Positions 9,381 to 62,503 of a DNA stretch of 64,000 nt are shown in pieces. The notes under the pieces are model-generated. The model did not search any database and was not told the DNA's origin. It saw nothing but the letters and a program-made list of their open reading frames with translations. Positions within the stretch are counted from its first letter, which is position 1, and the number at the start of each line of letters is the position of its first letter. The position numbers were made by a program, and so were the translations under genes. The stretch is from an uncultured Verrucomicrobiae bacterium (GTDB lineage: Bacteria > Verrucomicrobiota > Verrucomicrobiia > Palsa-1439). The stretch covers positions 32,001-96,000 of the forward strand of contig CAWEWF010000003.1 in assembly GCA_963812605.1 (NCBI GenBank), written 5' to 3'.

Positions 9381-9810
9381 ATTGCGTGCGAACTTCGTTG
9401 CCTTCGTCGATGTCGAGGAGGTCGAAGAAGGTTTGGATGTCGTCGCGGTTGGCGACGCCGAATTCTTTTTTGCGTTCCGCGAGACGCTGGCTGGCATCGT
9501 CGCGCCAGCCGCGTTTGCTGAGGAAACCGTTCCACACTTCGATTTCTTCGGGTGACGGTTTGCGGCCATTGGTGAAACACCATTCGAGGACGTCGACATC
9601 CTCGCCGCCCAGCTTGACGCGGGCAACGACATCTTCGTATTTCACGCCCAGAAAGGCGCAGCAGCGACCGTCGAATCCGCCGCCGAGCGCTTTATGGTAA
9701 TCCGCGGGCAGTTTGCCCTGCGCGTGGAGGCGGATTTTGTCGAGCATGCGGCCAACGTACACAATGTCGCCAAGTTTTTCGTGTGGACTGCGAAGACCGG
9801 AAATTTTCAT
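9376..9810 (-). CDS. DUF5069-like protein
   Basis: LRSPHEKLG..YVGRMLDKIR, FDGRCCAFLGV, TFFDLLDIDE; promoter TTGCGC-N17-TACAAT 6 nt upstream supports ATG 9810. Confidence 0.8.
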   Translation of the reverse strand: MKISGLRSPHEKLGDIVYVGRMLDKIRLHAQGKLPADYHKALGGGFDGRCCAFLGVKYEDVVARVKLGGEDVDVLEWCFTNGRKPSPEEIEVWNGFLSKRGWRDDASQRLAERKKEFGVANRDDIQTFFDLLDIDEGNEVRTQW

Positions 9811-17556: not shown

Positions 17557-18363
17557 TTACTCCTTGATTCTATCCGCCAAGGCTGCGAGCGCCATTGCAA
17601 CATCTTTGGCAACAAGCTCATTCACTATTGCTAATGGCAATTGGTCGCCAAACAATTCCAGTTCCTTAGAACGAAAACCCAATTCAGAAAGCTGTTCTCG
17701 CATGGATAAAATTCTTCCGACGAATCTTCGATCGAATTCACCTACTTGTTTCGTTTCGTAATCTTCCCAAATCTTCATATTCTTCATATATTCTTCCTGA
17801 GAAGTATTGCCGTAACCGAAGGTTGGTGGCCTGTTTATCTGCCATTGCTCTAGGAAGTCGAACATTTCTTTCGTGAGAATTCCGGCCCTCTTTTTTATTC
17901 CCGCTGCACTTGGATCGCGCGCGAAATCAATGTCTGATATTTTTTTCTGTAGCTGTGCATTAACAGATTGTAGGGTTTGTATCGTCGTGTCCTTTTGTTG
18001 AATCAAAGCAACGAGAGAATCGTTTTTCTGTCGCACTTTGGAATTTTGATTGGTCGCGATGTCAACTTCTTCAGACGCCACCCGTTCTGCATTCTTTGCC
18101 TCACGATAAACCCGAGCGGGAGATATAAAAAATAGTTGAACCAAAAAGACGAGCAGCGCGATGAGTAACGTCGCCAAGACTCCCATGAGAATGTCATTGC
18201 CCCATTCCCTCGCATGTGCCGCACTTGTGCGTTTGTGTATAAAAAAAAGCGACACAAGAAATATAATCACCGCATTCATCAGAAACAAGGGGGTCTGCAC
18301 CAATTCAAAATCCCAAGTGGAATTGAATGCGCGATGTGCGATATGAAGCCAATCGTGGAGCAT
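17557..18363 (-). CDS. IS passenger gene: 2-TM membrane protein with coiled coil
   Basis: AT-rich ORF within the IRs; two hydrophobic segments then heptad-like region (NSKVRQKNDSL...LQKKISD). Confidence 0.7.
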   Translation of the reverse strand: MLHDWLHIAHRAFNSTWDFELVQTPLFLMNAVIIFLVSLFFIHKRTSAAHAREWGNDILMGVLATLLIALLVFLVQLFFISPARVYREAKNAERVASEEVDIATNQNSKVRQKNDSLVALIQQKDTTIQTLQSVNAQLQKKISDIDFARDPSAAGIKKRAGILTKEMFDFLEQWQINRPPTFGYGNTSQEEYMKNMKIWEDYETKQVGEFDRRFVGRILSMREQLSELGFRSKELELFGDQLPLAIVNELVAKDVAMALAALADRIKE

Positions 18364-18435
18364 GACCACGAGATTGCCAAAAACAGGTCTAAAAAGCAAC
18401 TACGTATGCGAAGGGGATAATTCCGTTTTCTTTTT

Positions 18436-18564
18436 TCATAGTCCCATCACCTCTTTTGGGGTGTGAATCCGCATCAGCGGCCAGCCATGCAGGCGATTCA
18501 CTTCGTTAATGCGCGCCACTTTGTTCGGATTGGCCAAGTGTTTCATGTTCCAACTTACGATCAT
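18436..18564 (-). pseudogene. C-terminal remnant of a PIN-domain (VapC-like) toxin
   Basis: MIVSWNMKHLANPNKVARINEVNRLHGWPLMRIHTPKEV matches the SWNxKH...IxTPxE tail of a PIN subfamily; stop overlaps next ATG (ATGA); no N-terminal part upstream. Confidence 0.7.
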
Positions 18565-18636
18565 ACCCAGGCAATGACAAACCGCCACGGCCACCAAAAC
18601 GGCAGCGCGTTATCGTTGAGCCATCGATGAGATGTT

Positions 18637-18701
18637 GGTAGGGCGCGACCGCCGGGCGCGCCACGGTTGGGACGCGGGCCGCCCGGCGGTCGGCCCCTAC
18701 C
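18637..18701. repeat. Inverted pair of GTAG-family REP sequences (REPIN-like)
   Basis: GGTAGGGCGCGACCGCCGGGCG...CGCCCGGCGGTCGGCCCCTACC. Confidence 0.75.
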
Positions 18702-19089
18702 CACGGCGCGGAATGTGCAGTCGTCCATTTTCCCGGACAGAGTCAAGCTACACCCTCGTATATCGGCTACCGATAATTCTGCTGGACACGGTATGCTGAG
18801 ATGGGTATCCTTGGCCCAGTTCTTTGACAGGGGGAGCAGATTGCATTGTTTGTCAGGGGGATACGGGCGCAAAAACATGTCTTTTTGCGAAGCGAACCCC
18901 CCAGTTAACTGCCCGATTTGCAAGCACTTGGGCGTTCGACTCTCGAAAACCGGCCGGGGCGGTACGTGAAGGATGACGGGGGTGCTTGCGCCACTTGGAT
19001 CTCTCTACGACGCCCTGTCGGATTGGGACACCTCCGGCGTTGTTTGCCACTTGCTCAGTAGCCCGGCGCACGATAAAGTGAACCACGTT

Positions 19090-20507
19090 ATGTCATCTTT
19101 GACCTGAAAAAGATCGTCTCGCAGCGACTCGGGGAGAACTACGAGTTGCATGAGAAGTACATCAACCCGACGCTGGTGAAGGTTTTTCGCACCATCAGTT
19201 TCGACAAGGTTTACACAAAGGCCAAGGGCCAGTATTTGTGGGACAAGGAAGGCAACCGCTATCTCGACATGCTGAGCGGATTCGGGGTATATTCGATTGG
19301 TCGCAACCATCCGCAGGTGGCGCAAGTTATCCGCGACGTACTCGACCTGGATTTGCCCAACATGGTGCAAATGGATTGCGCGTTCCTGGCTGGGCTGTTG
19401 GCCGAGGCGCTCATTAAACGCACACCGCCGCATCTCGATGCCGTTTTCTTTTGCAATTCCGGCACGGAAGCGGTGGAGGCGTCATTGAAGTTTGCCCGCG
19501 CGGCGACGGGCCGCAGCAAGTTCGCCTATCTGGATCACGGTTGGCACGGGTTGTCGCTCGGGTCGCTGGCCATCATGGGGAACGAGGAGTTTCGCGAAGG
19601 ATTTGGCGAAATGTTGCCCGGCGTGGAAGTGCCCTACGGTGATTTGGAAGCGCTGGAAAAGGCGCTGGCGAAGAAGGACATTGCCGCGCTGGCCGTGGAA
19701 TGCATCCAGGGAAAAGGCGTGCGGATTCCGCCGCCGGATTACCTGCCCGCGGCGCAGGCGCTCTGCCGCAAGTACGGCACGCTGTTTTTCTGCGACGAAG
19801 TGCAGACAGGTTACGGCCGAACCGGCAAGTTGTTCTCCTTCCAGCATTGGAACCTGGAGCCCGACATTATTTCCACCAGCAAGGCGCTCAGTGGCGGTTA
19901 CGTGCCGGTCGGCGCGATGATCACGCGCCGCTGGATTTACCAGAAAGTTTTCAATCGCATGGATCGCTGCTGGGTCCATTCGTCGAGCTTTGGCCGCAAC
20001 AATCTCGGGATGGCCGTGGGACTGGCGACCTTACACGTGTTGGAGGAAGAGAAACTCGTTGAACGCAGCGCAGCGCAGGGCCAGAAGCTGATCGACGCCA
20101 TCAATGGGCTGAAGTCCAAACATGAAATGCTGATGGAAGCGCGCGGCAAAGGCTGCATGATCGGCATCGAGTTCCACGAACCGAAGAGTCTCAAGTTAAA
20201 GATGGCGTGGAAGATGATCCACGCGGCGCATGACGGTTTGTTTGCGCAGATGCTGGTGATGCCGCTGTTGGAGAAACACCATGTGTTGACCCAGGTGAGC
20301 GGGAACCACGGGGACATCATTCGCATCCTGCCGCCGTTTGTCATCACGGACGAGGACATCCAGTATTTTGTGCATGCGCTCGACGACGTGCTCAGCGATT
20401 GCTACAAGTTGCCCGGGCCGATGTGGGACCTCGGGGCGAACCTGGTGAAGGCCGCGATGCGCAACAAGGGTGAAAAGCAGCCGGAACCAGCAGCGGCGCC
20501 CGTCTGA
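19090..20507 (+). CDS. hpnO: Class III aminotransferase, hopanoid-associated HpnO
   Basis: DMLSGFGV, NSGTEAVE, DEVQTGYGRTG, HSSSFG; adjacent to hpnN/G/H/shc; true start probably ATG 19090 with one T missing in a T-run (MSSFDLKK). Confidence 0.82.
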
Positions 20508-20528
20508 GGCCCCTCCCACATTTCGACA

Positions 20529-23248
20529 ATGCGACAACGGTCTTTAACTGCGCTGGCGAATACCGTTTGCCGCTGGCCCTGGCTATTACTGGTCGTCGGC
20601 ATTCTGCTGGCGGTCGTTTCCGGTGTTTACACGGTGTACCGCCTGGAATTCAAGACCAGCCGTAACGACTTAATCGGGCGCGACAGCGATTACTGGCGCC
20701 TTTACAGCGAATACGCCAAGGAGTTCCACTCGGAGGAGGATTACGTCATTCTCGTCGAAGGCGACAAACCCGAGCGCAACAAGACCGCGATTGACGCGGT
20801 GGTGCAGGGCCTGTTGTCGCCGCAGAACAATCCACATCCAGGCGATGATCCGGGAGCGCAACAGTTCGTCGCTGACGATCTGTTCTACCAGGTCAACCTG
20901 GAAGCGTTCCAACGGTGGTTCCTGTACTACCTCACGATGGAGGATTTGAACTGCCTCAAGGATTTCCCACAACTGGTATTCGTGCTCCAGCACCAGCCGA
21001 ACATGGCCGGGTTCCTCCATGTCGCCAACGAATCGCTGATGCAGATGGGAATGGCGGGCGCCGACCGGAAAAAATGCACGCTGGGGTTCCTGCCGATGAT
21101 GACGACGGTGGTGGGGCAGATCGGAGATCTTGCGGCCACCACCGGTCCAACCGAATGGCATTCACCGTGGATGCAGGCGTTTATTGGGCCCGGAGAGAGC
21201 GAAAAGGCAGAAGAACAAATGCGGTGGCAAGGATACCAGACCTTCCGTCACGGCAAGATGTTCCTGCTGATGGTGCATCCACGAGTCGAGAAAGGGACGC
21301 CGGAAGCGTTGCATGAAGCGACCGTTCCAAAACTCCGTCGCATCATGGCGCAGGCGCAAGCCCGGTTTCCCGAAGTGAAAATCGGTCTCACCGGCGAGCC
21401 GGTGCTGGATTATGACGAGACGCTCCAGTCACAGCGCGACGCGACCAAGGCGACGGTACTCACGTTGGTCCTTATTTGCATCCTGTTTGTGGTCGGTTTT
21501 CGCGAGGTATTGCGGCCCCTGATGGCGGTGGCGACGATGGTCATCGTCCTGGCGTGCTGCATGGGATACGCCACGCTTTCGGTCGGCCACCTGAATATGA
21601 TCACGGTGACCTTCGCCGTAATGATCCTGGGACTGGGCATTGACCTGGGAATTCAATTCATCGCCCGCTACGAGGAGGAACTGAAGAAAAACCCACGGCG
21701 CGAAGAGGCCGTGCGGATGACCATTCACCACACGGGACCGAGCATCATCACGGCGGGTGTAACGAATGCGGCGGCGTTCTTCGCGATGGGACTCAGCGGT
21801 TTTCGCGGAGTGATCGAACTGGGGATCATCGCCGGCGGCGGGATGCTGATTGCGACGGTAGCGACCATGACCGTGCTGCCGGCGTTATTGTTATTGGTCC
21901 ACCGCAAGGAGGAAGCCACCCACATTCCCACGTGGACGATGGCGGCCCGCGTCGAGCTCATGTTGTTGCGTCGACCGTCATTCACGCTGGGAATCTGCGC
22001 ATTGGTGACCCTGCTTGCAGTTATCGTGGGCGGTCGGGTCCAGTTCGACTACAATGTGCTGAACCTGCAATCCGCCAAGGCCGAGTCCGTGAAGACGGAG
22101 TTGAGCCTCCTCCATGCCGACGCGGAATCGACGATTTTCGCCTCGGTTGTTTGCAGCAATCTCGATGAGGCGCGACAATTACAGAATCGGCTGGTCCAAC
22201 TGCCAACGGTCCGGTCCGTCCATAGCATCGCGGAGATGATTCCCGAAGACCAGGAGTCGAAGATCAAGATGATTCAGGATATCCGGCAGGCGCTGGGCAC
22301 GATTCACTTCGACGTGATACCGGATGATCCGGAGGAAGTTCTCAAGGCGCTGGGATCACTGCGGCTGCGCGCCAATGCGCTGGCCCGCGAGGCGGGACAA
22401 CACGGCGACAAGGCGAGCTTTGGAAGTTTTGAGTCCCGCTCACGAATGCGCTGACCCAGGCGCAGGTAAAACTAAAGCGGCCGACCGGTACCAATTTCAG
22501 TCGCGCCTGACCGATTATGAGCACCATTTCTACTCCGATTTGGAGTCGCAACTGGTGATCATCGCCACCCAGGCGGACCGCCCAATGACCGATTGAGGAC
22601 GTGCCCGCCCAGGTGCGGCGGATGTTTCGTCGGCAAGACCGGAAAGTTCCTCGTGCAGGTGTTTCCACGGGAGAACATTTGGGAGCGGGAGCCGTTGGTG
22701 AAGTTCGTGCGCGAGGTGCGCGAGGTTGCTCCCGGGGTGACCGACACGCCGTCGGGGTTGTACGAGTTTGTGGACATCCTGTTGCGCGGGTACATCAAGG
22801 CGGCGCTATGGGCGTTCCTGGTGATCACCGTGCTGATCTTTATGGATTTTCGCAATGCCTACGCGGCGCTGTTGACGCTGTTGCCGCTGATTGTCGGGAT
22901 GATCTGGATGGTCGGGGTGATGGTGGCGGCGCGGATCGATTTCAATCCCGCCAACATCATGGTGCTGCCGTTGATCGTGGGCATTGGCGTGGCGTACGGG
23001 ATTTATGTGGTCCAGCGCTATCGCGAGAGCCACGAAGCGACGTTCTACAGCAAGAGCACGGGACGCGCCGTGATTCTCTCGGCGTTGACGACCACGTTTG
23101 CGTTCGCCAGCCTGCTCGTCGGCGCGCACCGCGGCATCCGCAGCCTGGGTTGGTGATGACGATCGGCGTCATTGCCTGCCTGATCGCCGCGCTGGCGCTG
23201 CTGCCGGCGTTACTGGAGACCGCGCGCCGCAAGGGCTGGAAGGTGTAG
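20529..23248 (+). CDS. hpnN: MMPL/RND hopanoid transporter HpnN (several frameshifts at about 22430-22630 and 23150)
   Basis: GLTGEPVL, GLGIDLGIQF, second repeat NPANIMVLPLIVGIGVAYGIY, HRGIRSLG. Confidence 0.88.
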
Positions 23249-35422: not shown

Positions 35423-38400
35423 GATTTCTTCCGCATGGCTTCAGCGGGGCGCGGTAGGCTATCTCCTCGCGTTGCCTCTGTTCTTCCGGCGTGAGCTTCG
35501 GGACGGAGCGCTTGACCTTGTAGCCCTGACGGATCGTTTCCTCCAACTTCGGGACTGGCTGCGGGAGCGCCTTCAAATATGCGATGAACTGGTCGGGCTG
35601 ATGATATGACACCCTCGCCGCAGTATCCGCGCCAAGACTTGCCGAAACCGCCGCTGAGATTTTTTGCAGACGGCCCTCGTCCACGCAAATAATGGCGATC
35701 TGCGGTATCCCCGCCTTGAGGCATTTCTGAACGTTGCCGACTTCATGATCAATGGTTGTGGTGATGGAAATCTCGCACGCGATCTTCTGATCGTTTCGCT
35801 CCAGTAGCAAATCCACGCTTTCCTGACCTTCGGAAGGACGCTTTTCAATCACGCTGCGGAAGCCAAGTGCATCTGCGGCGTCTTTGATGCGCCGTTGAAT
35901 GGCTTGGTGTTGTGACCCGCCTTTGCCCAGGTCACGGAGCGGCTTCTGAATTTCCGCAGCGACCGGTGGCTCCATGTCCAATCGCGCACTCTTGTCACTT
36001 TTCGAAGCTGTTGCTTTCGGAACTTCGGCAGCGTTTGTTTCGGAAGCGTGAATCAGTGGGGAAGCGGGAACTTGAACTGCGGTCGGTACAGTGTTCGGAA
36101 CCGGAGACTGTTCCTGTAGTGGTTTGTTTCTTACGAACACGGAAGTTGGTCGGTCAGTCTCCCAGGCCTGCCGCAACATCGCTTCAACCTGCGCTCGGGG
36201 AGTGCCGTATTTTTCTCGCGAAGCCGCAATCACTTCCTGCCTTCGTTTCGCTCCTGCCGTTTCATCGGGTGCGTCGAACAAGGGAACCGAGAGGTTAAAA
36301 TCAAAATCACTCCGTTCCACGCGACAAATGGCTTGGGCCGTCTCCAAGTTCTTCAAGTCCGCTGATTCAAAGAAGGCGAACCCTTCGGCCAGCTTCTTGG
36401 CGTCGTCGTCGCCGACCCGAAACACGATGCGGGTAAACGGGTGCGACATGACGGCACTGGCTACGTCGGGACTGCGCTGCAATTGGTGTAGTTCGTGATG
36501 CGCCAGAGTCAGGCCAATTCGATATTTTCGCGCGCCCGATAGGATCTCCGCCATGCTTGGGGTGATGAAGTTGGCGAACTCGTCCACGTAGATCCAGCAG
36601 TCTCGGCGGGCGCGTGATCTGCTTGGCCTGGCGGCTCATGGCCATTTGTTGGAACTTGGAAACGAGCAATGCGCCCAGCAAATAGGAATTCTCTCGGCCC
36701 AAGAGCCCTTCGGGCAACTTGGCCAGAAAGATTTTGCCGCGTGTCCATGATCTGGCGCGAAATCCAACCGGTTCTCCGGCTGGGACACCATGTGGCGAAT
36801 CGGTTTTTGTGCCAGAAACATCTCCAAGCCTCGTGAGGATGGGACCAATGGACTTGTTGCCCGATAGATGTGGAAATCCTTTGCTGCCAGTAGTACAGCA
36901 CGTTCGGGTCTTGAACAGATTTCGAGAAATTCGGACCGGAAAGACGGTTCAATCAGGAAGCGGCGCAAGTCGGCGAGCGTGCCGCGCCGATTGCTTTCCA
37001 GAAAGGCGAGAATCGCGTTTTGCAGCACGCTTTGCATCTGGTCGCCCCAGCTTGACGACAGCCGCTGGAATACCGACACCAGATCAGAGGCCAGCAGATT
37101 CTTCTCCAGTTCGCTGTGGGCAGAAAGAATGTTGAACCCGACGGAATACTCTTCGTCAGACGGATCAACCAACACCACGTCGTTGATGCGATGTGCTGGG
37201 ATGATGCGTCAATACCTTGTCCACCAAATCCCCGTGCGGATCGAGCACGGCCACACCTTCACCGTTGTCAATGTCCTGGCGGATGAGATTGAAAAGAAGC
37301 GTGGATTTCCCGGTGCCGCTGGCGCCGATGATGTGGCAATGTCTGACCCGCTGTTCGGGCGTCAGTTTGACCGGAACAGACTGGCCGGCGTGGGCGTTGT
37401 CGCCAAGTAATAGACCAGCGACGTTCCGGACAATCGGCGGGGCGGCTTTGGTCTTGCCACTGTTGCGTTCCAGCGCCGGCGAGCGAACCGCGCTGGATGG
37501 CAGATGCACGAAGCCGGTCAACTCGTCGCTATTGAGGAGCATCCCGGAACGCCGGGACTGGCGACGAAGCACGTCCTCAACATGATCGTAAAAGGGATAA
37601 TCATCGTTCGTGAGCGGGATGAGTTCGTTGCCTTGCGGTTGGGCAAACACCTGAAGCGAACCGGCCATGTCCTTGGCAATCTGCAGCGCACGCTCAAAGG
37701 TTTCGCTTCTTGCGGCAATCCGCACGACGGCGGCATAGAGCGGAACTTCGGATTTTGTTTTCCGCCGCGCTTGGTCAGTTCGGGTTCGTTGACAAAAAAC
37801 GGTTTGCCATCGCTGCCAGTGACGGAGCGCAGGATGCTCTCCGACCATTGTCCCTGCACGGGCTGAAAGAGGACTTGGAAGAGCGCGAGGTCGGCGGATT
37901 GCAATTCCGCCAGCGCACCGACAAGCCCGACAAACGGGTCGACCGTTTGCCGCTGGCAAGCTCGTACATAAACTCACGCGCCAAGCCAAACTCAACTACC
38001 AGCATTTCCTCGCCCTCACAAGATTCCCAAGCCTGCTCTAACGGGCTTTCACATGGCAGAAACACGGCATCGGAGAAGTGGGCCTGCAACTGGCGGCGGA
38101 CCAGCGGGGCATCGCTCTGGCTGGCGACGAACTGGACAATAACGCGCCTGGCGGTCCCTAGCAATTCAAAGGCGATCGGCTCGCGACAGAGTGACAAGAT
38201 TAGAGAGGAATTGCTCAAAGGCTTCTGCAGTCAGTATCCAGCTTGGCGGGCAGGGAAGTCTGGAGTTCAATCGAGGCTGTCACGTACGAGCGATTGCGGT
38301 TCGGGTTCTTGTTCCCCTTTGGGTACGGCGGATGGTAGGGTCGGCGCGTCACTGAGTTTCTGACTGAGCTTCCGCACCAAGGAACTCAAGAGTGTTGGCC

Positions 38401-38562
38401 GCCTGCCCATCGTCCACGGTGGGGCTGTCGGGCAAATAGTGGCCGTAGAAGGGACGGAACGGTGGTTCGGGATATACGGGTTCATCAAACACCTGCCAGC
38501 CGCGTCCACGTACTTCCCACTTGTCGGAACTGCTCGGTCAGTATTTCATGCACCGAGGCCAT
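35419..38562 (-). CDS. VirD4/TraD-like coupling ATPase with C-terminal PD-(D/E)XK-like domain (multiple frameshifts)
   Basis: HCHIIGASGTGKSTLL, LDPHGDL, YVDEFANF, ARKYRIGLTLAH, FRVGDDDA; C-terminal VDLLLE..IACEIS. Confidence 0.85.
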
Positions 38563-39284
38563 GACGAATCACTTTGGTTCTTCGCGGTACAGGCACGGGC
38601 TTGTAGAGTTCGCCCAGGATGGGTGCCTGCTCGTATTGGCGAGTGAGCTTGACGCCATTGGCGGCGGTGGCTTCTTCGGCAAGTCGTTTGATGACCTTTG
38701 GCACTGTATCCAGATACAACAGGCGCGTATCGGTACGAAAATACGTTTCCTTTCGGAACCAGCACTCGTAAATGGGGCCGATAACAGGCGTTTTGATCAA
38801 TGCGGCATCAAGGTCGGACAGACCCAAGCGCAATCGTGTTCCGAAACACCTGGGCGATGGCGAAGAGAAGGCCCTGCGAGAGCGATCGCCGCGAAAGACT
38901 GCTCCAGTAGCCAGTTGGCAAGCAGCGCGTAGACTGTAGCAAAAAAGAACCAGACCCAGCACAACCGCAGGTGCCAGAGTTTCACGACGGCGGGAATATA
39001 CACACGTGCGGCAGGAGAAGAAATACCCGGTGCCAAACGGTGCGGCACACGTATCGAATATCAGACGTTCACGAATCATGCGCAGATAGACTCGTTTGTC
39101 GGATAACGGGGCCGCCTTCGTCGAATTCGACACGGGTCATGTCCATGCTGGGGATTTTGAGCGGCGGCCAATTCGGCTTCTCGACGGCGGCATAGAATTC
39201 CGAGGGGTGGATAACTGAAACCGCTCAATGAAACGCGATCCAGTGGTTTAAGACCTCACCCTTTTTTCGCTTGAAGCCGAACAT
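38546..39284 (-). CDS. Hypothetical membrane protein coupled to the VirD4-like gene (frameshifted)
   Basis: MFGFKRKKGEVLNHW..., KRVYLRMIRERLIFDTCAAPFGTGYFFS, ETYFRTDT; overlaps the VirD4-like start. Confidence 0.55.
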
Positions 39285-39353
39285 GGGTTTGTCGCAAAGT
39301 TCAGGCCGTCATTATGGCTGGGTGACATCCGAACGGTCAACGCTAAAGGGAGT

Positions 39354-40170
39354 GTGGTCACGTTGCAGAGAGCTTGTGATACGCTTGACCAGATAGCTGC
39401 TGACAAATGGATGAGGCGATTCCATCCGGTACGTTGGAAAGCCGCTGCGCGGCAATGGACGCGCGGGCTGCGACCGCTGCTATGGTGGGCGGTTCTCGTG
39501 CTTGCGCTTTATGGCGTCCGATTGCACCAGCATTTAATCAGCCAAACGCGGTTGACATACTCAGTCACGTTGCAAGGAAGGCCGGTCGATTATCAGGCTT
39601 CGGTCATGCTGGATGGTCGACCAATATTCAGTGGCGCGCCTGTGGCACTCGGCTGGCACAGCCTCTCAATTAGCCATCCCAGGGCGGAATCGTACACGAC
39701 AAATCTGTTCATCTGGTACGGGGAACACCGATCTAGCCGATGTCGCCTTGAACCGCCTTAAGGGCACGCTGGCAATACAAGCCGATCCTCCTGCCGCTTT
39801 GCTCATTATTCGCGGACCAGAATTCACGCTGACGCTGACGAACAGCTTTGGAACAGTTGAGTCGGTCCCCACAGATCAATATGTCGTTGAGGCGCGATAC
39901 CGTCATTGGCAGGGGCGACAGGAAATATCAGTAACACACAACACGATCTCGAATTATACGTTCGCCCCACAGATTGGGGTCTTGCAACTGACCTGCAATC
40001 AGCCGAATACCTCATTTGAATTGTACGGCCCTGACAATGACTTGGTTGAACGCGGCGTACTGCCGTCGATGATAGACGGCCTACCGAATAGGGAAGTATA
40101 CGGTGATCGCTTTCAATCAAGCAAATAGACAGGAGAAGATCGTAACAGTCTCGTCGGGAACGGTGAAGAA
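39354..40170 (+). CDS. Membrane-anchored beta-rich protein, PEGA-like repeats (frameshifted)
   Basis: TM helix then GWHSLSISHP, GTLAIQADPPAA, GVLQLTCNQP. Confidence 0.5.
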
Positions 40171-41781: not shown

Positions 41782-43246
<1,465 letters not shown>

Positions 43247-44169: not shown

Positions 44170-45160
44170 CAGCCATCGACTTCCTTTTCCACTTCTGCAA
44201 CTGCTTCTTTCAGATACCTCGTGTGGCGATTCGGTCAATCTCTTGTTGCTTTTCTGGGGACAAAAATTGTTCGCCCGCCATTAGCTCGCTGTGTCTCCGA
44301 CCCCACGCACGGACGAACGCTGCGTAGTAAGGATCACTGAACGCTTTTGAAAAGCCAGCGGCAGCCAACCTTTTGTCGATTGTCTCAAGTTCTTTTTTCT
44401 CCTGAGCGGTCAATGATTCCTCTTTAGCTACTAAGCGGACTCTGTCATCCAAGTCGGCGAGGGTTTCTGGATCGAGATCGCTTCGAAAACCGAACATTTC
44501 GCTGGTCAGGATGCCCGTGAATCCGAGCCCACGCGGATTGACGCTGGCAGGAGCCCACTTGCAGGCACCAGTCTTCGATGTCGCGCTTCAAAAGGTGAAC
44601 CTGCTCTTTGACCAAGACTCGCAATAACAAGCGGGTCATGAGTCGCCATCAGAATTTGACTGCTCTGCTGCTCAGGTGACTCGAGAGCATTGTCGCTCAT
44701 TACGCGCGTGAGGTCTTTTAGGTAGTCCACACTCCAATGCGGATTCAAATGGGTATCCGGCTCGTCTAGCAAGCACGAGCGACTGATGCGATTTCGTAAA
44801 TCGCATTAAGCCCAAGACCATGAGCAATTGCTGCTCACCCTCGCTCAGTTGGTGGAACGTGATTGGAACCTGCTCGGTGTTGGTCGCTTTGATACGGACC
44901 TGAATCTTCACATCGTGGATCAGCTCGGAGAAGTCGGTGCTCTCCAGCGCCAGAAAAAACGTCCGGGCATCCTGGTACTCTGCTGCGAACGAATGCAGGC
45001 TCTCGAGGTCTGGCAAGAAGAAATAATAGTGGTCTTCCGTGGTTGATCGGTAGCCGTAACTGACTGCCTGTTGCACAACCATCGGCGCAATGGCGTAGCG
45101 GCGAAGCCGCTCCATGACTCGACGCATGATACCGGTGGCTACCCCAGAAATCCTCTGCCT
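44169..45160 (-). pseudogene. ABC/AAA ATPase (PtuA-like), N-terminus with Walker A missing, frameshifted
   Basis: LSEGEQQLL signature, LDEPDTHLNP Walker B/D-loop, MATHDP H-loop; upstream sequence belongs to another gene. Confidence 0.8.
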
Positions 45161-45483
45161 TGCTCGGGTGCTACGTTGGCGAAAGGATTTAAACTGACAG
45201 GGAAGTCGCGGTCGCCCGGATTGAAGTACACGAGATGGTCGGCTCGCTGCGGTGGAAGGTGGTTAAGGAGTTCCTCAGCCAAGTCGCCGTGCGGATCGAT
45301 CAGGCCGACGCCGTGCCCTGCGGCAATGTGTTGAACGATCAGGTTGCGCAGAAGTGTCGTCTTGCCCATGCCGGTTTTACCGATGACGTACACGTGGTGC
45401 CGGCGATCTTCGGCGTGCACGCCAAAAAGCGCGGGGTCACCGCCCCACAAGTCACGTTGGCCGATGTAAATGGGTTGGTTCAT
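45139..45483 (-). pseudogene. N-terminal fragment of a second VirD4/TraG-like ATPase
   Basis: DRRHHVYVIGKTGMGKTTLL, LIDPHGDL, VYFNP, LNP; ends abruptly after about 110 aa. Confidence 0.8.
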
Positions 45484-45660
45484 GGCACCAAGGCCAACCG
45501 CCACTCCTGCCACGTAAAGCAGACCCCGTCGTCATTTGAGTCATTAGGCGCGGCGGTGGCATCGACATACGCGTCGGGTGCGAGTCGATGAGGTAATAGC
45601 GGCTGGCGTTGAAGTCAGACACAACACATTATAGCAGTGAACCGGTCGTAAAATCGCGCG

Positions 45661-45914
45661 GCGCTTTTTCCACAGGTGAGGTAATTGTGTTCGTGGGCGT
45701 ATTCATCAAGCGCGAAGTCGTTAGGCGCGGTGCGCGACACGTTGTCCTTTACTAAAACCAGTTCCCCCAACGTGTGTCGGGCAGGGCGATTGAGCCCGGT
45801 AGCGCCCGACTTCGCGCTTTTTGGTGATGGGTCGGCGGTTAGCAGGACCCGAACCCGATAGCCACATGGAAAAAGCGCGAAGTCGGGCGGTAGCCGACAC
45901 ACGTTGGGGGAACT
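45661..45914. repeat. Nested inverted-repeat element (structured ssDNA/RNA candidate)
   Basis: Perfect 21-bp IR 45760-45780/45894-45914 and perfect 20-bp IR 45803-45822/45870-45889, plus competing 12-, 13- and 8-bp arms to the left. Confidence 0.9.
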
Positions 45915-46189
45915 CGTAGGCCACGGCTGAGCCGCGAATTAGAAAACTGGCAAGCGATAGCCCCTACATACCATGTAAATAGGGGTGTTTGTATGTCGCA
46001 CAAGATTCCTTTTGCGACATGAAATCGGAAAAGTGTCAAGGTTGGGCGGTATATTTGACAAGCCAACTCAAACGTGTTGTAACGTTGTCGTTGGCTTTCT
46101 TTTTTGCGGTAGACCGTGGTATGATGCAAACGCACTTGTGAGGGCCTCCGCTCTCCAGCAGTCATCTAAAACCGCAGACAAGTGCATTC

Positions 46190-46216
46190 AAAAGCCACCG
46201 AGAACCGGTGGTTTTT
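46190..46216. terminator. Bidirectional intrinsic terminator
   Basis: AAAAGCCACCG-AGAAC-CGGTGGTTTTT directly after the stop of the 46222-46698 gene. Confidence 0.75.
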
Positions 46217-46221
46217 GATTG

Positions 46222-46698
46222 TCAATCGAGGGCGGGATCACCATCATGGAGGGTCCTTCCCTGCTCGGTTTGCCGCCAAAACGGAATCAGGCTCCAGAAG
46301 ATCCGTTCACCGCCCGGCAATTGCTTGACGATGACCTTGAACCGTCGGTTTTTCAGCACCGCAACAAATTCGTAATACTTTACGTGTACGAGAAGTTTTT
46401 CCCATCGGCCATGCCGGTGTCGGCGCTCCCATTCGTTCGTGGTCTGTATTCCCTGCACCGTGTGGCTTAATCGTAGGATTTCTGGCGCTTCTGGCAGATG
46501 TTTAAGCCGCATGAACTGGTCACGTCGTTCGCGGCCTCGATTCCAAGTCTTATGGCGTATGTGCTCGAAGCCCTGGGTGTTGAGTTGGACGGGCTGACGG
46601 AAATACGGGTAGTAGACATGGGTGACGGCATAGTAAAAGGCCTGCGCTTTATGCAGAACCTGTTGGAATTCCTGGTCCGTGAATTCGAGCGGAGTCAT
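46222..46698 (-). CDS. Hypothetical protein, possible BECR-fold (RelE/PBECR-like) nuclease
   Basis: VQLNTQGFEHI, YYEFVAV, FKVIVKQ, FWSLIP pattern. Confidence 0.65.
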   Translation of the reverse strand: MTPLEFTDQEFQQVLHKAQAFYYAVTHVYYPYFRQPVQLNTQGFEHIRHKTWNRGRERRDQFMRLKHLPEAPEILRLSHTVQGIQTTNEWERRHRHGRWEKLLVHVKYYEFVAVLKNRRFKVIVKQLPGGERIFWSLIPFWRQTEQGRTLHDGDPALD

Positions 46699-49712: not shown

Positions 49713-50303
49713 ATGCAACTGAGCACATTAGCTGCGCCGGACCTCCATGGCACATATTCCGACAGTGATGCTGGCAGGGGGCAAGACAAAGTGCCGAGTG
49801 GTCACGGAACTTTGACATTGCCAGATGGGCTGGACGTACACCGGCGAATTTCGGGAGGGCCTACCCAATGGCCACGGGGTTTGCACATGGCCAGACGGCA
49901 GGAGATATACAGGCGAGGTCAAGGATGGTGACTGAACTGGCATCGGTGTGAGCACATGGCCATTTGGGGAGCAGTAATCAAAGGGGAGTTTGAGGAGCGG
50001 TCTCCCAAAATGGCCAAGCAACCGAAACATGGTCAGATTGGGACAAAATACGTAGGCAATTTTGAGGATGGTGTACAGTTCGGATATGTCCCCTTGACAT
50101 GGCCGAACGGGTTTAAATACGAAGGAGATTTTTGGAACGGCCTGCCGAATGGTCAGGGTATTGCGACATGGCCAGACGGTACTAGATACGTTGGCGAGAT
50201 GCATAGTGGCCAGATTGATGGCAGAGGCAAAGTTACCAATCCCGACGGAAGTGCGCGTGAGGGTCTGTGGAAGCAGGGTCAATTTGTGGGCGAAATGCGA
50301 TAG
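49713..50303 (+). CDS. MORN-repeat protein (frameshifted)
   Basis: YEGDFWNGLPNGQGIATWPDG, YVGEMHSGQIDGRG repeats. Confidence 0.75.
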
Positions 50304-50627: not shown

Positions 50628-51750
50628 ATGGTCAAACGCATTCTCGTTGTGTTTGGTATCTTATCCTTTATCGTGTACGCGACGTTTTGGAAGTCGCGGA
50701 CTAGCTCTTGCGCAGAATGGTTCAATTGGCTTACCAGATGCCGCCAACAACACCGCTGAATTGTTGCGCGGTTCGGTGGTTTGGCTGCCTCTGGACGAAG
50801 GCCAGGACTGGTACGAATGTGGCTGATATTTCTGGCAACGGACATGGAGACCACCTATTTGGCACGCCACTGCCTATCTGGACGAAAGGCGTCATCTCCA
50901 ACGCGCTGGCCTTCGATGGTGTGGGGAATTATGTGAGTGTGCCTGACGCACCAGACCTCACACCGAGCAACACACTGACTTTGTCGGCGTGGGTAAAGGC
51001 GTCCCCTACGACCACGGGCATCATCGTGGTAAAGTGGATGTCCGATGGACAGTCAGGGAGCTACAGCTTGGCTCTTACTAACGGGCAGATTGGCGTAGAG
51101 ATTTCACTTGACGGAGTGTATTACCCGTCGGTGGCCACAACAGGCATAGAGGATACTGATTGGCATCATGTGGCCGGCATCTTACTGATGGCGTGCGAAT
51201 AATTGTGTACCTTGATGGCGTAGTGGACGCGAGCAGTCTAGCGACCGGGACGCTGGATGTAGCGAAAGTCCCCTTTTCTTGGTTGGTGAACTCACCGGCA
51301 GTATCGACGAGGTGCGGCTTTACGACCGGGCTTTAAGCAAGGACGAAGTGTTTGCGCTCTACGACATTGGGCGAGCCAACCGAGAAAACCGATATGATCG
51401 CAACCAGGAAGCAGAAGAAAGTATTTGCAGGTGCTAACAGCGTCGTTCCACAGGTATCAAATGCAGTGACGGACTCTGTGATTAGCGCACCGCTGACCGA
51501 TCAACACCGAAACGGAAGAGATGTCAGCAACGTGAACCAATCTATCGGCAATAATAACCATGATGGACTCGCACGTACACCGGGCAATGGGCACGGTCCG
51601 AAGAAGGAAATTCAGGCAGCGATTTCAGAGGCCAAAAATCATGAAGATGTAATCGAGGTCAGTGCCGGAACTTATCCACACACCACGTTCATTCAACAAG
51701 GGAAAACAATCACGTTCCAATAGTGTGGGCACAGTCATTATCAACTGAGT
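50628..51750 (+). CDS. Secreted LamG-like jellyroll domain protein (frameshifted)
   Basis: Signal peptide; WLPLDEG, ALAFDG, TLSAWVK, WHHVAG, IDEVRLYDRALS. Confidence 0.7.
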
Positions 51751-53280: not shown

Positions 53281-56200
53281 ATGAAAAGAATCTTGCCAGT
53301 CCTCTTATTTTGAGCAGCTTGAGGTTTGTGGGCAGTTGCTCGGGAGATGGGATACTGATTTGCACAAATAGCACATGCGCGCCGTGTCAGGTGCGAGTGG
53401 ATTTGGACGTTATGTCAACACCCTGTGATGCAGGATTCACGGTCTCTTTCTATGATGAAACGGGCAACAGTGAAGGATTGATAAATGGGTCGAGCTTGCA
53501 CACATGCGTCAATCCGTATAGTGGCCATTGTTTTGTCGCGGTTGATGTTCAGTACTATTATCGCCCATACGCGGGGGGATTTTGCCAGCCGTATGTCGGC
53601 ATTGATTTGGGGGGCATATGCAGCCAATTCGGTGAGTGGATTCGCGGGCGACAGGTCTCGGCGGCGACAACGCTGCTACCACCATACACAGTGTGCGCGC
53701 ACGTTTATCCGCCACCGCACGACAACAATTCTCAACGAACCGGTCAGGACACCACGGACGATGAAGATTGGTATCTGGCAGCCAACAGACACCGACTGCA
53801 ATCAAAATACGGGAAGAATTCTATCCGGTAAAGTTGGGTAACGGCGCGACATCTTCGAAGCTCCCGGATCTTCAATTGGTCCCAGTTCCCGGCGAGACAT
53901 TATCGGCAACAAATGCGTACCAGATTCCAATCCAGCGCCAATGCAATTCTCGGCCCCTTTGAAGGCGGGTCGGACCCATAATGACAATGTGTCGTGTCTC
54001 GACGCGACCAATTACGTGATGATTTCGGATTGGCAAGGGAGCCAGCGTGTGTTTACCATAAGCAACAGGGTCTATACCGGAGACGTGAATGTTGCCGGAA
54101 GCTGAACAAACACGACCGTCTTTCCACTGCAGTTGACGCACGGAACACGGTATTGGTTCGACAGCCAGCATGGCAACCGGTTGGGTACGATCACTGACCG
54201 GATCGTGAACACCGTGACGCTTTCCAATGCTACCGGCAACATCCTCACAGGTGTCGTGGATGTAGCGGGAGGAAACTCGCACTCTTCTATAACGTCAGCG
54301 ATGACTTGACGAACGTCGTTGATCCCATTGGTCGCGCCACCAGCTTTGGCTATGACGGACAGGGTCGGCTGGCGAGCGTCAGCGATTCACTCGGAACGCG
54401 GGCCCAGTACGTGTACGGTGATTCCGCGTTGACCAACGCCATCACTCAGGTAACAAATGGCCGAGGCTATGCCGACGGTTTCACGTACAATACACTCGGT
54501 CAGTGCCTCAGTCAAACGAGTGCGTTAGAGAAAGTGCAGACATTTGCGCTGACGCGGGACCAATCAGCAGGTTACCGTCACGAAGTTCGATGGCACCAGT
54601 CACACCCTGTATAACGATGCGACTCGTGCCGTCACCGCCCGCGTCGATGCCGCCGGTACACAACAGTATTGGCGTGATGGCCTGCATCAGGCCACCAATA
54701 TCGTGGACCGGCTTGGCGATAGCACTCAGTATTTGTTTGATACCAATGTGAGCGCCAGCGGGCTCTCGGGCACCCTGCTGAGGCAGATTGACCCGCTTGG
54801 GCGGACGAATTCCTGGACCTACGAGGCAGTATTCAATTTCCCGGTCACCTTCACCAATGCTGCCCGGTGGTGTCGCGCACTGGGGCTACGATAACAAGGG
54901 GAACGTGACCATCACCACCGATGCTGCCGGACAGGTCACCCTTTACCGGTAACGATGGTGCTGGCAACCAAACAAGCGTTACTGACGCCAACACTCACGT
55001 AACAATGTTTGGCTACGACCAATACGGCCACCTTACTGAACGCCACCGACGCGCTCAGCCACGCAACGGGGTTCACCTACGACATTGTCGGGCGACGCAC
55101 CAAGAGTAGCGCGGATGCGCTCGGGCAGAGCGAATCCTTCACCTGGGACGCCCGCGACCGGCTCACTCGCCATGTCAACGCCGCTGGCGAGACCAACATA
55201 TGGAGCTACGATGGCAACGGCAACCAGACCGCGTGGACCGACCCCCAATCAACACCCGCACCAACAGCTACGACGCGCTGGATTGGTCGACGACAACCAC
55301 CTTGCCTGGGCGACAGCGCGGCGTTCGTGACGTACGGCTATGACGACGCCAATAACCGGGTCAAGCGCGACCCATGCGTTGAGTCATCAAACGAAGTTCG
55401 GCTTTGACGCACTGGGTCGACTGACCAGCACAACCAACGCCCTGAGTAAGGTCTGGTCATTTGTCGTGGACGCCGAAGGCCGACGCACCCGCGCGACCTA
55501 CCGAAATAGCCATAGCCAGGGCTTTGTCTACGACGCGGCGGGCCAACTGACTGCGTGGGGACGAACGCGTTGACACAAAGTGCGGGTTACGGTATTCAGC
55601 TACGACCCGCTGGGTAACCTGACGAATGCGTGAGACGCGCGCAGCAATCCGCTGACGTTTGGCTACGATGCCGTGAGCCGTTTGACAGCCGTGACCTATG
55701 CTGGCGGAAGTAGCGAGCAATTTTCCCACGACGGCGTGGGCAACCTGACCGGCTTGGTGACCCGCGCTACACAGACCATCGTCATGACCTACGACGCCGC
55801 GAACCGGCTGACGCAAAAGAGTTACGTTGGGACCGTCGACGCGTTCAACTACGGTTACGACGCGGCGAACCAATTAACCGGTGTAGTAGCCGCCGTCTCA
55901 GGCGGCTCCGTCACTTCTATTCTCGCCTTCGCCTACGACGCAGCAGATCGGCTGACCAATGAAACGCAAACTGTAGGAACAGCGTCCCCGCGCGCGGTGG
56001 GCTACCAATATTTGGACAGATGGTCGCCGCAATCGCCTGACCTACCCTGACGGCAGTTTCATCACTTACGACTACAACACCAAAGGGTGGCTGACGGACA
56101 TCAAGGACGGTGGCACGAATACAATCGTCAGCTACCAGTACGACGCGGCGGGCCGACGAACACAACGAACGCTTGAGAACAACACGTTCACTCTCTACGA

Positions 56201-58011
56201 CTACGACGTTGCCAACCAGTTGACGAGCATTTGGCACCAGGTTACCAGTGGGGGGACCAACACGATCAGCCGCTATCAGTACGGATACGATAACGCGGGG
56301 AATCGGAGTTGGGTGAAGCGGGCGCATCAGTCCAACAAGGGAGATGTCTACACGTACGACGCAGCCGACCAGTTGACCGACGTGAAATACAACGCTACAA
56401 ACCCCGATGGAAGCGCCAGCGGCTGGGATCGGGAAGTAACGTACGCCTATGACGTGGCCGGTAATCGAACGAATCTGATTGAGAAAATCGGCAACGCGAC
56501 GAATGCGACCAGCTATGCAGCGAACAGCGACAACCAGTTGACCAGCGCGACCGCGACACGCCAAGGATTAACTGTGGCCGGGGCGGTTAATTCCGGTCCG
56601 CTCAGCAACAAGTGGTATGCAAGCACAGCCTTGGCGCGCGGAGTCAGCGCCGGAGTCAGCACAATGAACGGCACGTTTTCGCTGCCCTGTGTTCCAATGA
56701 GTGGTTGCAGTAAAACGCTTTGACTGTGACTGTCACCGATGTCAGCGGCAACATCGCCACGCAAATCGTAAACGTGACGATGGCAACCGGGACAAACACG
56801 TTCGGTTACGATGCCAACGGAAACCAGACGAATGATGCTGTGTGGAGTTCACAGCTACGACGCCGAGAACCCGGAAGTCGGCGGCCAATGGATCTCTAAC
56901 GAATAATTACAGCTATGACGCGATCGACCGTTTCATTGGCAGCGAAGGACCAGCGGCAGTAGTGTAATGACCAATTGCCTCTATTACGCTGGCGAGCTAC
57001 CGATTGCCGAGTACAAACGGAGCCGGCGTCCTCCAGCGCAGATATGTCGTGGCCTCGGCGTCGACGAGCCTCTGCGAGTGACCGAGCGGCAACAAATTTC
57101 TATTTTCATGCAGATGGGCTTACGAGCGTCACCGAGATATCTGATTCATCTGGCAACCTCATTGAGCGATACAGTTACGATGTGAATGGTGCGGCGATGT
57201 TCTACAGTAGCAGTGGTGCATTGACCAACGCTTCCGCGATTGCCAACCGCCTCCTCTTCACATCACGCGACCGCGACCCAGACACGGGGTGGTATAATAA
57301 TCGCCATCGCTACTACAACCCGAATGGTGGGCCGGTTCGCCAGCCCTGGACCCGATTCGGGCTAGAGGTGGCGACTTGAACCTGTATCGCTACTGCTACA
57401 GCCACCCGATAGACTTCAAAGATTCTTCAGGGTTGTGCAAAGATGGCAGCTTTTGGAGTGATTACTGGAACAATCTCAGTCAGGACTGGTTCAATAATCT
57501 GAGCGACGGCGCGCGCGGCCTTCTGATGTCTCCAGTGGATTTAGTATCTGGCATAATCGGTGGGGTTGGCGGCTCTGGATTGATGCAGGCAACCTGTCGG
57601 GGCATCCCTGGGGTATCTGGGACTCGACGCTCAACGCGCGACCAAACCTGCCCGGACGACCATCCCGGCTGCACTTGAACAATAGGGAAGCGATCCACGT
57701 GCCATCGGTTCCACCGTTGGGCAAATCGGGATCGGATTTGGAGCCGGGAATGCCTTTGTCTGCTGCAGATGCGCTGTCTGCAGGTGATAAGGTTTCGAGC
57801 GCTGCAAACGCGATCGAAGACTGGTTGGGACCGGACACGAAGTTGAGACGGACTCTGGTAGCCTGATGTTACGATCGGCAGATGGTACTAAGTCAATTCG
57901 CTTTGACCTGTCGGGTTCTGATCGGCACATCAATGTTGAGACTTGGCAGCCACTCGGAAATGGTAGGTTTACGAATGAGTTGGCAATGTGCATGTTTATC
58001 CAAAACCGTAA
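53281..58011 (+). CDS. RHS/YD-repeat polymorphic toxin (many frameshifts)
   Basis: YDGQGRL, YDAANRLT, YDNAGNR repeats; core RDRDPDTGWYNNRHRYYNP and NLYRYCYSHPIDFKDSSG; variable C-terminal region. Confidence 0.85.
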
Positions 58012-62416: not shown

Positions 62417-62503
62417 GCGGACGTGGCGAAACTGGCAGACGCGCAGCCCTCAGAAGGCTGTGACCGCAAGGTCATGGAGGTTCAACTCCTCTCGTCCGCA
62501 CCA
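62417..62503 (+). tRNA. tRNA-Leu (anticodon CAG)
   Basis: Acceptor GCGGACG/CGTCCGC+ACCA; anticodon arm CAGCC-CTCAGAA-GGCTG; long variable arm TGACC-GCAA-GGTCA; GGTTCAA T-loop. Confidence 0.96.

Follow-up and report, generated by a model that had tools for sequence, protein, structure and literature searches.

The core finding of this work is a conserved non-coding element of ~350 nt, built around a long nested hairpin and located at about 45640-46000 of the 64-kb stretch of Verrucomicrobia DNA that we analyzed (the window). We consider it probable, though far from certain, that the element is a MOBC-type origin of transfer (oriT) serving a mobilization module that encodes a VirD4-like coupling protein and a Replic_Relax (PD-(D/E)XK-type) relaxase, and possibly a single-strand priming site as well. 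The structure of the element, its conservation, its covariation, the genes that accompany it and the likeness of its layout to a repeat on plasmid pTEF1 are established; the assignment as an oriT rests on the gene context and on the pTEF1 likeness. It would be a further example, in Verrucomicrobia, of a known kind of oriT, with a conserved competing arm, segment X, as its unexplained feature.

Results

A Nested Inverted Repeat with One Dominant Fold

The central part of the element is a two-tier inverted repeat (Table 1). In the repeat search, its 24-nt outer arms are 96% complementary and include the perfect 21-bp stem (45760-45780/45894-45914) listed in the original prediction, and its inner arms form a perfect 20-bp stem within a 32-nt pair that is 84% complementary. 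The whole repeat spans 161 bp, a size comparable with the ~140-bp inverted repeat of pAD1 oriT2, and a CGGTAGC motif is found at each of the two junctions between the stems, as had been claimed. We refer to this fold as State A. A second proposed fold, State B, consists of three stems of 12 nt (45661-45672/45867-45878), 13 nt (45708-45720/45807-45819) and 8 nt (45737-45744/45768-45775), each 100% complementary, and arises because two pieces of the inner stem recur upstream in direct orientation (45661-45669 is identical to 45814-45822, and 45708-45720 to 45873-45885). Every stem of either fold is present in the sequence, position by position, as originally drawn.

When the 301-nt stretch 45640-45940 is folded as DNA, it reaches -85.9 kcal/mol, compared with -56.7 ± 4.1 kcal/mol for shuffled sequences (z = -7.06; 0 of 100 shuffles as good), and for the minus strand folded as RNA z is -6.89; such values lie far beyond chance, and the nested hairpin is genuine. 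State A is both the minimum-energy fold and the centroid structure. Forcing the stretch into State A gives -85.9 (DNA) and -145.8 (RNA) kcal/mol, versus -67.9 (DNA) and -124.0 (RNA) kcal/mol for State B, so that State A is better by 18 (DNA) to 22 (RNA) kcal/mol: the two folds are mutually exclusive, as proposed, but they are not of equal standing.

Table 1. Coordinates of the element and of the adjoining coupling-protein gene in the window
Feature	Position	Strand	Remarks
Truncated VirD4/TrwB-like coupling-protein gene	45139..45510	-	DUF87, TrwB_AAD_bind; match 45163-45471
Segment X (GCGCTTTTTCCA)	45661..45672	+	Direct repeat of the top of the inner left arm; complementary to Z; State B outer stem; A2 columns 104-115
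Segment W (AAGCGCGAAGTCG)	45708..45720	+	Identical to part of Z, in direct orientation; pairs with Y in the 13-bp State B stem; window-specific
Outer stem P1, left arm	45757..45780	+	Core CCCCCAACGTGT invariant, paired in 50/50 sequences
Left junction	45781..45802	+	Small side hairpin GGGC...GCCC and first CGGTAGC (45797-45803)
Inner stem, left arm Y	45803..45822	+	Covaries with Z
Apical 47-nt loop	45823..45869	+	Small hairpin 45829-45833/45846-45850; motifs GGTTAGC, CGATAGCC
Inner stem, right arm Z	45870..45889	+	5' part able to pair with X instead of Y
Second CGGTAGC	45888..45894	+	Unpaired right-hand junction of inner and outer stems; family-invariant, but within the search pattern
Outer stem P1, right arm	45894..45917	+	Repeat search, DNA fold, pair counts
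Small conserved hairpin CGGC-TGA-GCCG	45924..45934	+	Family consensus GCGGCGGTTAAGCCG; alignment pairs 494/503, 495/502
Terminal palindrome	45961..45985	+	Family consensus CCTACATACCATGTATGTAGG, 9-bp stem with compensated variants; 2 mismatches in the window copy

A Relic Copy in the Window

In the window itself, the element is a relic in a decaying island and has outlived its genes, because the adjoining coupling gene is truncated and no relaxase gene is left. The VirD4-like gene downstream of the element in the original prediction does have VirD4-like similarity, but it is not a whole gene: only residues ~13-114 of a 438-aa intact relative are matched, an N-terminal fragment with ~114 codons left. 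No remnant of the relaxase is detectable anywhere within the 64-kb window. The first 33 kb contain long intact ORFs; from ~36 to 58 kb there are only short ORFs, and the Pfam matches are pieces of larger genes in shifting frames, such as an N6 methylase (42059-43014) split over three ORFs, RHS repeats (54306-56720) spread over at least five, and fragments of Laminin_G_3 (50708-51199) and MORN (49956-50300) type. The "PtuAB-like pair" noted earlier likewise shrinks, in Pfam, to an AAA_21 fragment (44506-44769) amid broken genes. An alternative genetic code for the short ORFs near the element was rejected, as no single stop reassignment opens coherent genes. As a whole, the segment 36000-58000 is an island in decay or else a strain-variable stretch that was poorly resolved.

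Three further features of these surroundings were recorded. A second, distant VirD4-like gene (36138-37413, minus strand), split over two frames, has 27-46% identity to the coupling protein of the related genome G052, and no large inverted repeat was found upstream of it (37900-39400). To the right of the element, the minus strand carries a 157-aa ORF of no known family (46222-46698) and an HTH_36 gene, and directly downstream of the 157-aa ORF it has a hairpin that, with its T-run, resembles a terminator (46195-46211); minus-strand transcription from the right probably ends before the element. Finally, a tRNA-Leu (CAG) gene at 62417-62503 is a possible integration site for the island.

The Element Recurs in ~50 Other Assemblies

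Of 60 related genomes searched at the DNA level, three carry the element, with 69-80% identity; one belongs to the same genus, one to the same family and one to a different family of the class. To assemble the wider family, we scanned one genome per prokaryotic species for an exact match to 26 bases of the conserved right arm, which yielded 57 other loci in ~50 other assemblies. Three of the 57 are the loci already found among the 60 genomes; 43 carry titles of Verrucomicrobia-type taxa, and the remaining 14 come from MAGs with other, unconfirmed taxon labels. Because the search pattern consists of 26 exact bases of the right arm, the invariance of that arm is built into the collection. The recurrence of the same nested repeat at so many loci disposes of an assembly fold-back, an artifact that the original prediction had named as a possible refutation.

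Among 400 other genomes sampled evenly across the phylum, one carries the element, and this rare, patchy distribution fits what is expected of a mobile element. The window's own assembly (4.17 Mb, 15 contigs) has a single copy, and six of the ~50 others have two or three loci; at these copy numbers, an interspersed repeat or MITE was rejected. A blastn search with 2.4 kb against phage and plasmid collections gave no match, the right-arm pattern has 0 matches in viral contigs, and among public sequencing runs no RNA run is listed as carrying the element, every run holding at most 0.14 of its words. At nine of the 57 loci (L017, L019, L027, L029, L036, L037, L041, L062 and L065) a contig end falls in the element itself or no more than ~140 nt away, and two assemblies have two such element-broken contigs each; the hairpin or its repetition seems to break assemblies.

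For the comparisons below, the window and 49 loci (50 sequences) were aligned over 400 nt, leaving out eight loci cut by a contig end. From the left, conservation begins with a GC-rich hairpin and segment X (~45640-45672), which are followed by several small hairpins and the large nested hairpin; the right part comprises the GCGGCGGTTAAGCCG hairpin, a GGGC-loop-GCCC hairpin and the terminal palindrome CCTACATACCATGTATGTAGG with its 9-bp stem. The left junction varies in length and sequence within the family and is missing from ~11 sequences.

Covariation Supports the Inner Stem and a Competing Pairing, X:Z

Run on this alignment, RNAalifold predicts State A. The core of the outer stem is paired in 50/50 sequences, but it is uninformative on pairing because it is invariant and its right arm lies in the search pattern. 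The inner stem has changed a great deal: its two halves are 90.3% and 93.1% paired over the 50 sequences, nine of its pairs have changed on both sides, up to four pair types are seen at a single position, and its covariation score is reached by 0 of 500 shuffles, with all slid controls far lower. In the long helices, one-sided changes number 0-1 per pair versus 6-20 two-sided ones, and one copy (G012) has compensating insertions in both arms. Both the homologues and the covariation that the original prediction called for were found, the former at 57 loci and the latter in the inner stem.

The outer stem of State B, formed by X and Z, behaves similarly, with 88.4% pairing and changes on both sides in five of 10 pairs (50 sequences). 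On a tree built from the other alignment columns, X:Z complementarity has been kept through at least six compensated versions over several clades, and at one position 25 sequences have C in X and G in Z, 17 have T in X and A in Z, and Y is a constant T. Z therefore has two conserved partners, Y and X, since both pairings are kept with compensated changes and X tracks Z where Y does not. The X:Z pairing cuts across the outer stem and cannot coexist with the top of the inner stem. The other two stems of State B, in contrast, are peculiar to the window, being 48-63% (13-bp stem) and 30% (8-bp stem) paired across the family. What survives of the two-state idea is a pair of conserved, covarying helices that compete for Z, one from each state; a bistable switch with three nested stems, as first drawn, was rejected.

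Coupling and Relaxase Genes on One Side, Variable Defense Cargo on the Other

In three relatives, the element lies 5' of an intact TrwB/VirD4-like gene of 435-455 aa, which in G052 is followed by genes for Replic_Relax (PF13814; E = 5e-21), a DnaG-type primase, RadC and an N6 methylase. Among all 58 loci (the window and the 57 pattern loci), oriented alike and inspected over 4-kb flanks, 46 have the coupling gene, always to the same side of the element and on one strand (72-91% amino-acid identity where the match is full length), 22 have a Replic_Relax (MOBC, PF13814) relaxase gene, and 11 a CHC2-Toprim (DnaG-type) primase gene. Five of the 12 loci that have no coupling gene have less than 450 nt of left flank, and six, with at least 2.4 kb, have other genes there (CBASS, TIR, Fic, RHS). 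The pairing of a MOBC relaxase gene and a coupling gene beside the element is seen in relatives; the window retains only the truncated coupling gene. A search for plasmid relatives of the relaxase gave one match, a broken remnant on a Bradyrhizobium plasmid with no useful context.

On the right, similarity between loci stops 0-15 nt past the terminal palindrome. An all-against-all BLAST of the oriented loci gave 1362 pairs unlimited by a contig end; the shared stretch ends +95 to +120 from the anchor in 1033 of them and earlier in 299, and only 26 share more than 500 nt further right. In five closer pairs similarity ends at +102 to +118, corresponding to 45984-46000 of the window. A sharp boundary of this kind is the expected product of relaxase-mediated recombination at an oriT. 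Beyond it lies variable defense cargo, in which a scan of 76 ORFs found OLD with UvrD, HamA, Cas3-like helicases, SIR2 with HerA, patatin with SMODS, KAP NTPase, methylases and serine recombinases; the cassette borders a defense-cargo hotspot.

Anti-phage systems are found to the right or left of the element at L013, L021, L025, L028, L038, L042, L049, L050 and L051, and these flanks also include CBASS-like SMODS with patatin or TIR-STING, Cas3-like HD helicases, and a C5 methylase with a GHKL ATPase. Locus L046 is 91.5% identical to L044 from -541 to +104, and its right flank matches the L010/L031/L064 group over more than 1 kb, which suggests an exchange at or near the element; within the 400-nt alignment, L044/L046 is the only pair to reach the criterion set for recombination.

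The Layout Resembles That of a MOBC Plasmid Repeat

In work attributed to Francia and Clewell in 2002, oriT2 of plasmid pAD1 is said to be a ~140-bp inverted repeat adjoining short (6-bp) direct repeats and to be nicked by TraX inside the repeat; its function was reportedly tested. In our analysis, pTEF1 (L066; MOB-suite type MOBC) has a nested repeat of 142 bp whose arms, 18 bp (outer) and 25 bp (inner), are perfect and whose fold z is -10.75; five 12-bp tandem repeats adjoin it. The repeat region (19498-19735) lies between the coupling-protein gene (19757-21970) and the PF13814 gene (18114-18899). The oriT of pAD1 has been mapped between ORF53 and ORF57, with a homologous region in pTEF1 (PMC3084688). 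In the literature, PF13814 is assigned to the PD-(D/E)XK nucleases (PMC3424549) and described as the MobC relaxase superfamily, paired in streptococcal mobilizable elements with a VirD4 coupling protein and a serine integrase (PMC5357655), MOBC relaxases are set apart from HUH enzymes (PMC6736028), and pAD1 TraX is cited as also being a site-specific recombinase (PMC5714925).

The Verrucomicrobia element and the pTEF1 repeat are both perfect or nearly perfect inverted repeats in two tiers (24 + 20 bp over 161 bp in the window, 18 + 25 bp over 142 bp in pTEF1) in which asymmetric unpaired junctions connect the inner stem to the outer one; both lie in a non-coding gap beside genes for a VirD4/TraG-like coupling protein and a PF13814 relaxase, and both have short repeated motifs beside the repeat. 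They differ in order (coupling gene-repeat-relaxase in pTEF1, repeat-coupling gene-relaxase in Verrucomicrobia) and in the repeated motifs, which are five tandem 12-bp repeats in pTEF1 and dispersed G-N-TAGC hairpin loops in the Verrucomicrobia family. The Verrucomicrobia element is, moreover, GC-rich, resides in integrated elements, has the extra conserved arm X competing for the inner stem, and has no sequence similarity to any plasmid in the collection, pTEF1 included. A literature search on MOBC relaxases and oriTs in Verrucomicrobia matched 172 titles, and none of the 12 inspected concerns an element of such a kind. CloDF13 (L068), whose ORFs match no Pfam family, has a nested 134-bp repeat (9650-9783; fold z = -7.33) upstream of a 531-aa ORF; this repeat, at most a candidate oriT, was kept out of the evidence.

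DNA or RNA

A different reading of the same structure is that the element acts as RNA, either as a structured non-coding transcript or as a long 5' leader controlling the mob operon, in which pairing of Z with either Y or X would constitute a bistable riboregulator or attenuator. We regard this as unlikely, yet worth serious consideration. Both competing helices show compensated changes, the element stops sharply after a hairpin, and in part of the family a GC-rich hairpin beside X stands between an A-run and a T-rich run and looks like a two-way terminator. Control of conjugation by alternative RNA folds is known from prgQ of pCF10, whose prgQ/IRS1 leader also has two mutually exclusive pairings of one segment upstream of transfer genes (PMC7117660); the element differs in that its pairing statistics are DNA-like and in that it is known here from sequence alone.

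The pairing statistics in question are the near absence of G-U pairs from the long helices, where 598 of 600 cells in the outer stem are Watson-Crick and the inner stem, one column excepted, has 5 G-T versus 5 A-C cells, together with the scarcity of one-sided changes described above. RNAalifold prefers neither strand (core energies of -37.7 for the plus and -39.6 for the minus strand). No sigma-70-like promoter was found at a consistent site on either strand (at most eight of 51 loci per region, at scattered positions), and there are no -35/-10 hexamers within the window element, the consensus used being that of sigma-70, which may not be the phylum's own. The original prediction had suggested an Rfam search, and in the whole window this matched only the tRNA-Leu; with Rfam 15 over 45400-46300, even at E ≤ 10, the best hit in the element was Mcr7, with 16.3 bits versus a gathering score of 380.

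The loops of the many small hairpins are strand specific, as they would be in an RNA. On the plus strand, G..A loops are found in 32/45, 34/46 and 20/47 sequences at three sites, where T..C occurs in at most 1, and in 43/49 at a fourth site that lay within the search pattern; a further hairpin has a TTCG loop in 16/49. The third base of the G..A loops is mostly T, however, and the resulting G-N-T-A is unlike GNRA. It gives rise to a repeated G-N-TAGC, of which there are five to six, all on the plus strand and in hairpin loops, with no tandem direct-repeat array in the element; G-N-TAGC looks more like a recognized sequence motif than like a GNRA or stability loop. The strand-specific loops suggest a plus strand that is single stranded, as DNA or RNA.

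A true bistable single-stranded switch, in RNA or in transferred DNA, in which X and Y compete for Z, flip the fold of the ~350-nt element and so gate the expression or processing of the MOBC module, appears doubtful to us. If it did exist, it would be a regulatory device undescribed for any transfer origin, in a module that carries anti-phage cargo among Verrucomicrobia.

Single-Strand Origins, Duplex Binding Sites and Other Known Systems

Alternatively, the element might serve as nothing more than a single-strand origin or priming signal: once folded, its plus strand would attract RNA polymerase or a DnaG-type primase of its own for synthesis of the complementary strand, and the nick would be made elsewhere. 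In rolling-circle plasmids and ICEBs1, single-strand origins are extensively folded non-coding regions of 150-400 nt that are specific to one strand, act only as single-stranded DNA and lie near the nick site, in rolling-circle plasmids just upstream of it. The element is likewise long, strand-specific and made up of many hairpins, a CHC2-Toprim primase is encoded in the module beside it, the homology boundary lies just outside it, and the TAGC(G) of its hairpin loops is reminiscent of the CS-6 motif, TAGCGT, of ssoA-type origins. The element is tied to a MOBC relaxase and not to a Rep_trans/HUH initiator. Given that a primase gene is present at just 11 of the 58 loci and that the layout match in pTEF1 is a region known as an oriT and not as a single-strand origin, we find a priming role on its own improbable; priming and transfer overlap, the one not excluding the other.

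Frpo-type single-strand promoters in the leading regions of F-like plasmids are long hairpins in the transferred strand beside transfer genes. The stems of the element differ from these in having no conserved -35/-10 hexamers, the outer stem being invariant but not promoter-like and the inner stem variable, and an Frpo-like or ordinary sigma-70 promoter was rejected for want of conserved hexamers at a fixed place.

Very improbable, in our judgment, is a double-stranded regulatory region, in which X, Y, Z and the palindromes would be repeated sites for a co-evolving DNA-binding protein and no single-stranded fold would form. In its favor, X is almost the same 11-mer as Z read in reverse complement, and the two have changed in concert; the terminal palindrome resembles an operator, as does an imperfect palindrome upstream, AGTGTCTTGACC...GGTCGTGACACT; and strict Watson-Crick symmetry suits duplex DNA. 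Yet the inner stem, over 14-16 bp, varies freely while its complementarity is kept, with four kinds of pair at single positions, a pattern characteristic of paired arms, not of a binding site with a fixed sequence; the compensating insertions in the G012 copy and the strand-specific loop signatures also speak against it.

A retron, to which State A had been likened and whose msr-msd RNA also has flanking inverted repeats around a long hairpin, was rejected, as no reverse-transcriptase (RVT) domain is found in 116 ORFs from 33-59.5 kb of the window or in 24 proteins beside three intact relatives, and the element keeps company with conjugation genes, not with retron effectors.

Discussion

The original prediction leaned towards a role as single-stranded DNA, with an oriT among the options, and this reading fits best in view of the coupling and MOBC relaxase genes that accompany the element, the pTEF1-like repeat and the near-exclusively Watson-Crick stems. 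The covariation of the inner stem, the patchy distribution (3/60 relatives, 1/400 phylum genomes) and the sharp homology boundary also count for an oriT. Against it count the absence of similarity to plasmid sequences in the collection, the gene order, which is unlike that of pTEF1, the lack of tandem short direct repeats, the presence of the relaxase gene within 4 kb at only 22 of 58 loci, and the six loci where other genes replace the coupling gene. The conserved X:Z pairing, which has no known role in an oriT and is reminiscent of an RNA switch, and the strand-specific loops of the small hairpins, which would suit an RNA equally well, have to be set on the same side.

If the element is an oriT, the relaxase and any helper proteins would recognize the parts that do not vary: the outer stem and the terminal palindrome, together with the G-N-TAGC motifs in hairpin loops and the unpaired GGCGGTAGC junction. 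Nicking of the plus strand would take place either in this junction, where the second CGGTAGC is a candidate for the nicked or recognized site, or immediately 3' of the terminal palindrome, and the strand would then be transferred 5' to 3', so that the variable cargo on the right would enter the recipient first and the hairpin region and the mob genes last. In the single strand, the long State A hairpin would fold and serve termination and recircularization, and perhaps priming; the same single-stranded region may prime synthesis of the complementary strand.

For the window's own genome the finding is a modest one, because the copy is a fossil in a decaying island. Its wider interest lies in the relaxases: MOBC enzymes are restriction-enzyme-like and not of the HUH type, and we know of their oriTs from very few plasmids. 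The ~50 diverged copies show that sequence is preserved in the outer stem, in the GGTAGC of junction and loops and in the terminal palindrome, and that in the inner stem only the structure is; the former parts are direct targets for nick mapping, and the conserved third arm, X, is itself testable. In Verrucomicrobia, for which we know of almost no described conjugative biology, the element marks a mobilization cassette whose variable side, at other loci, carries many defense systems.
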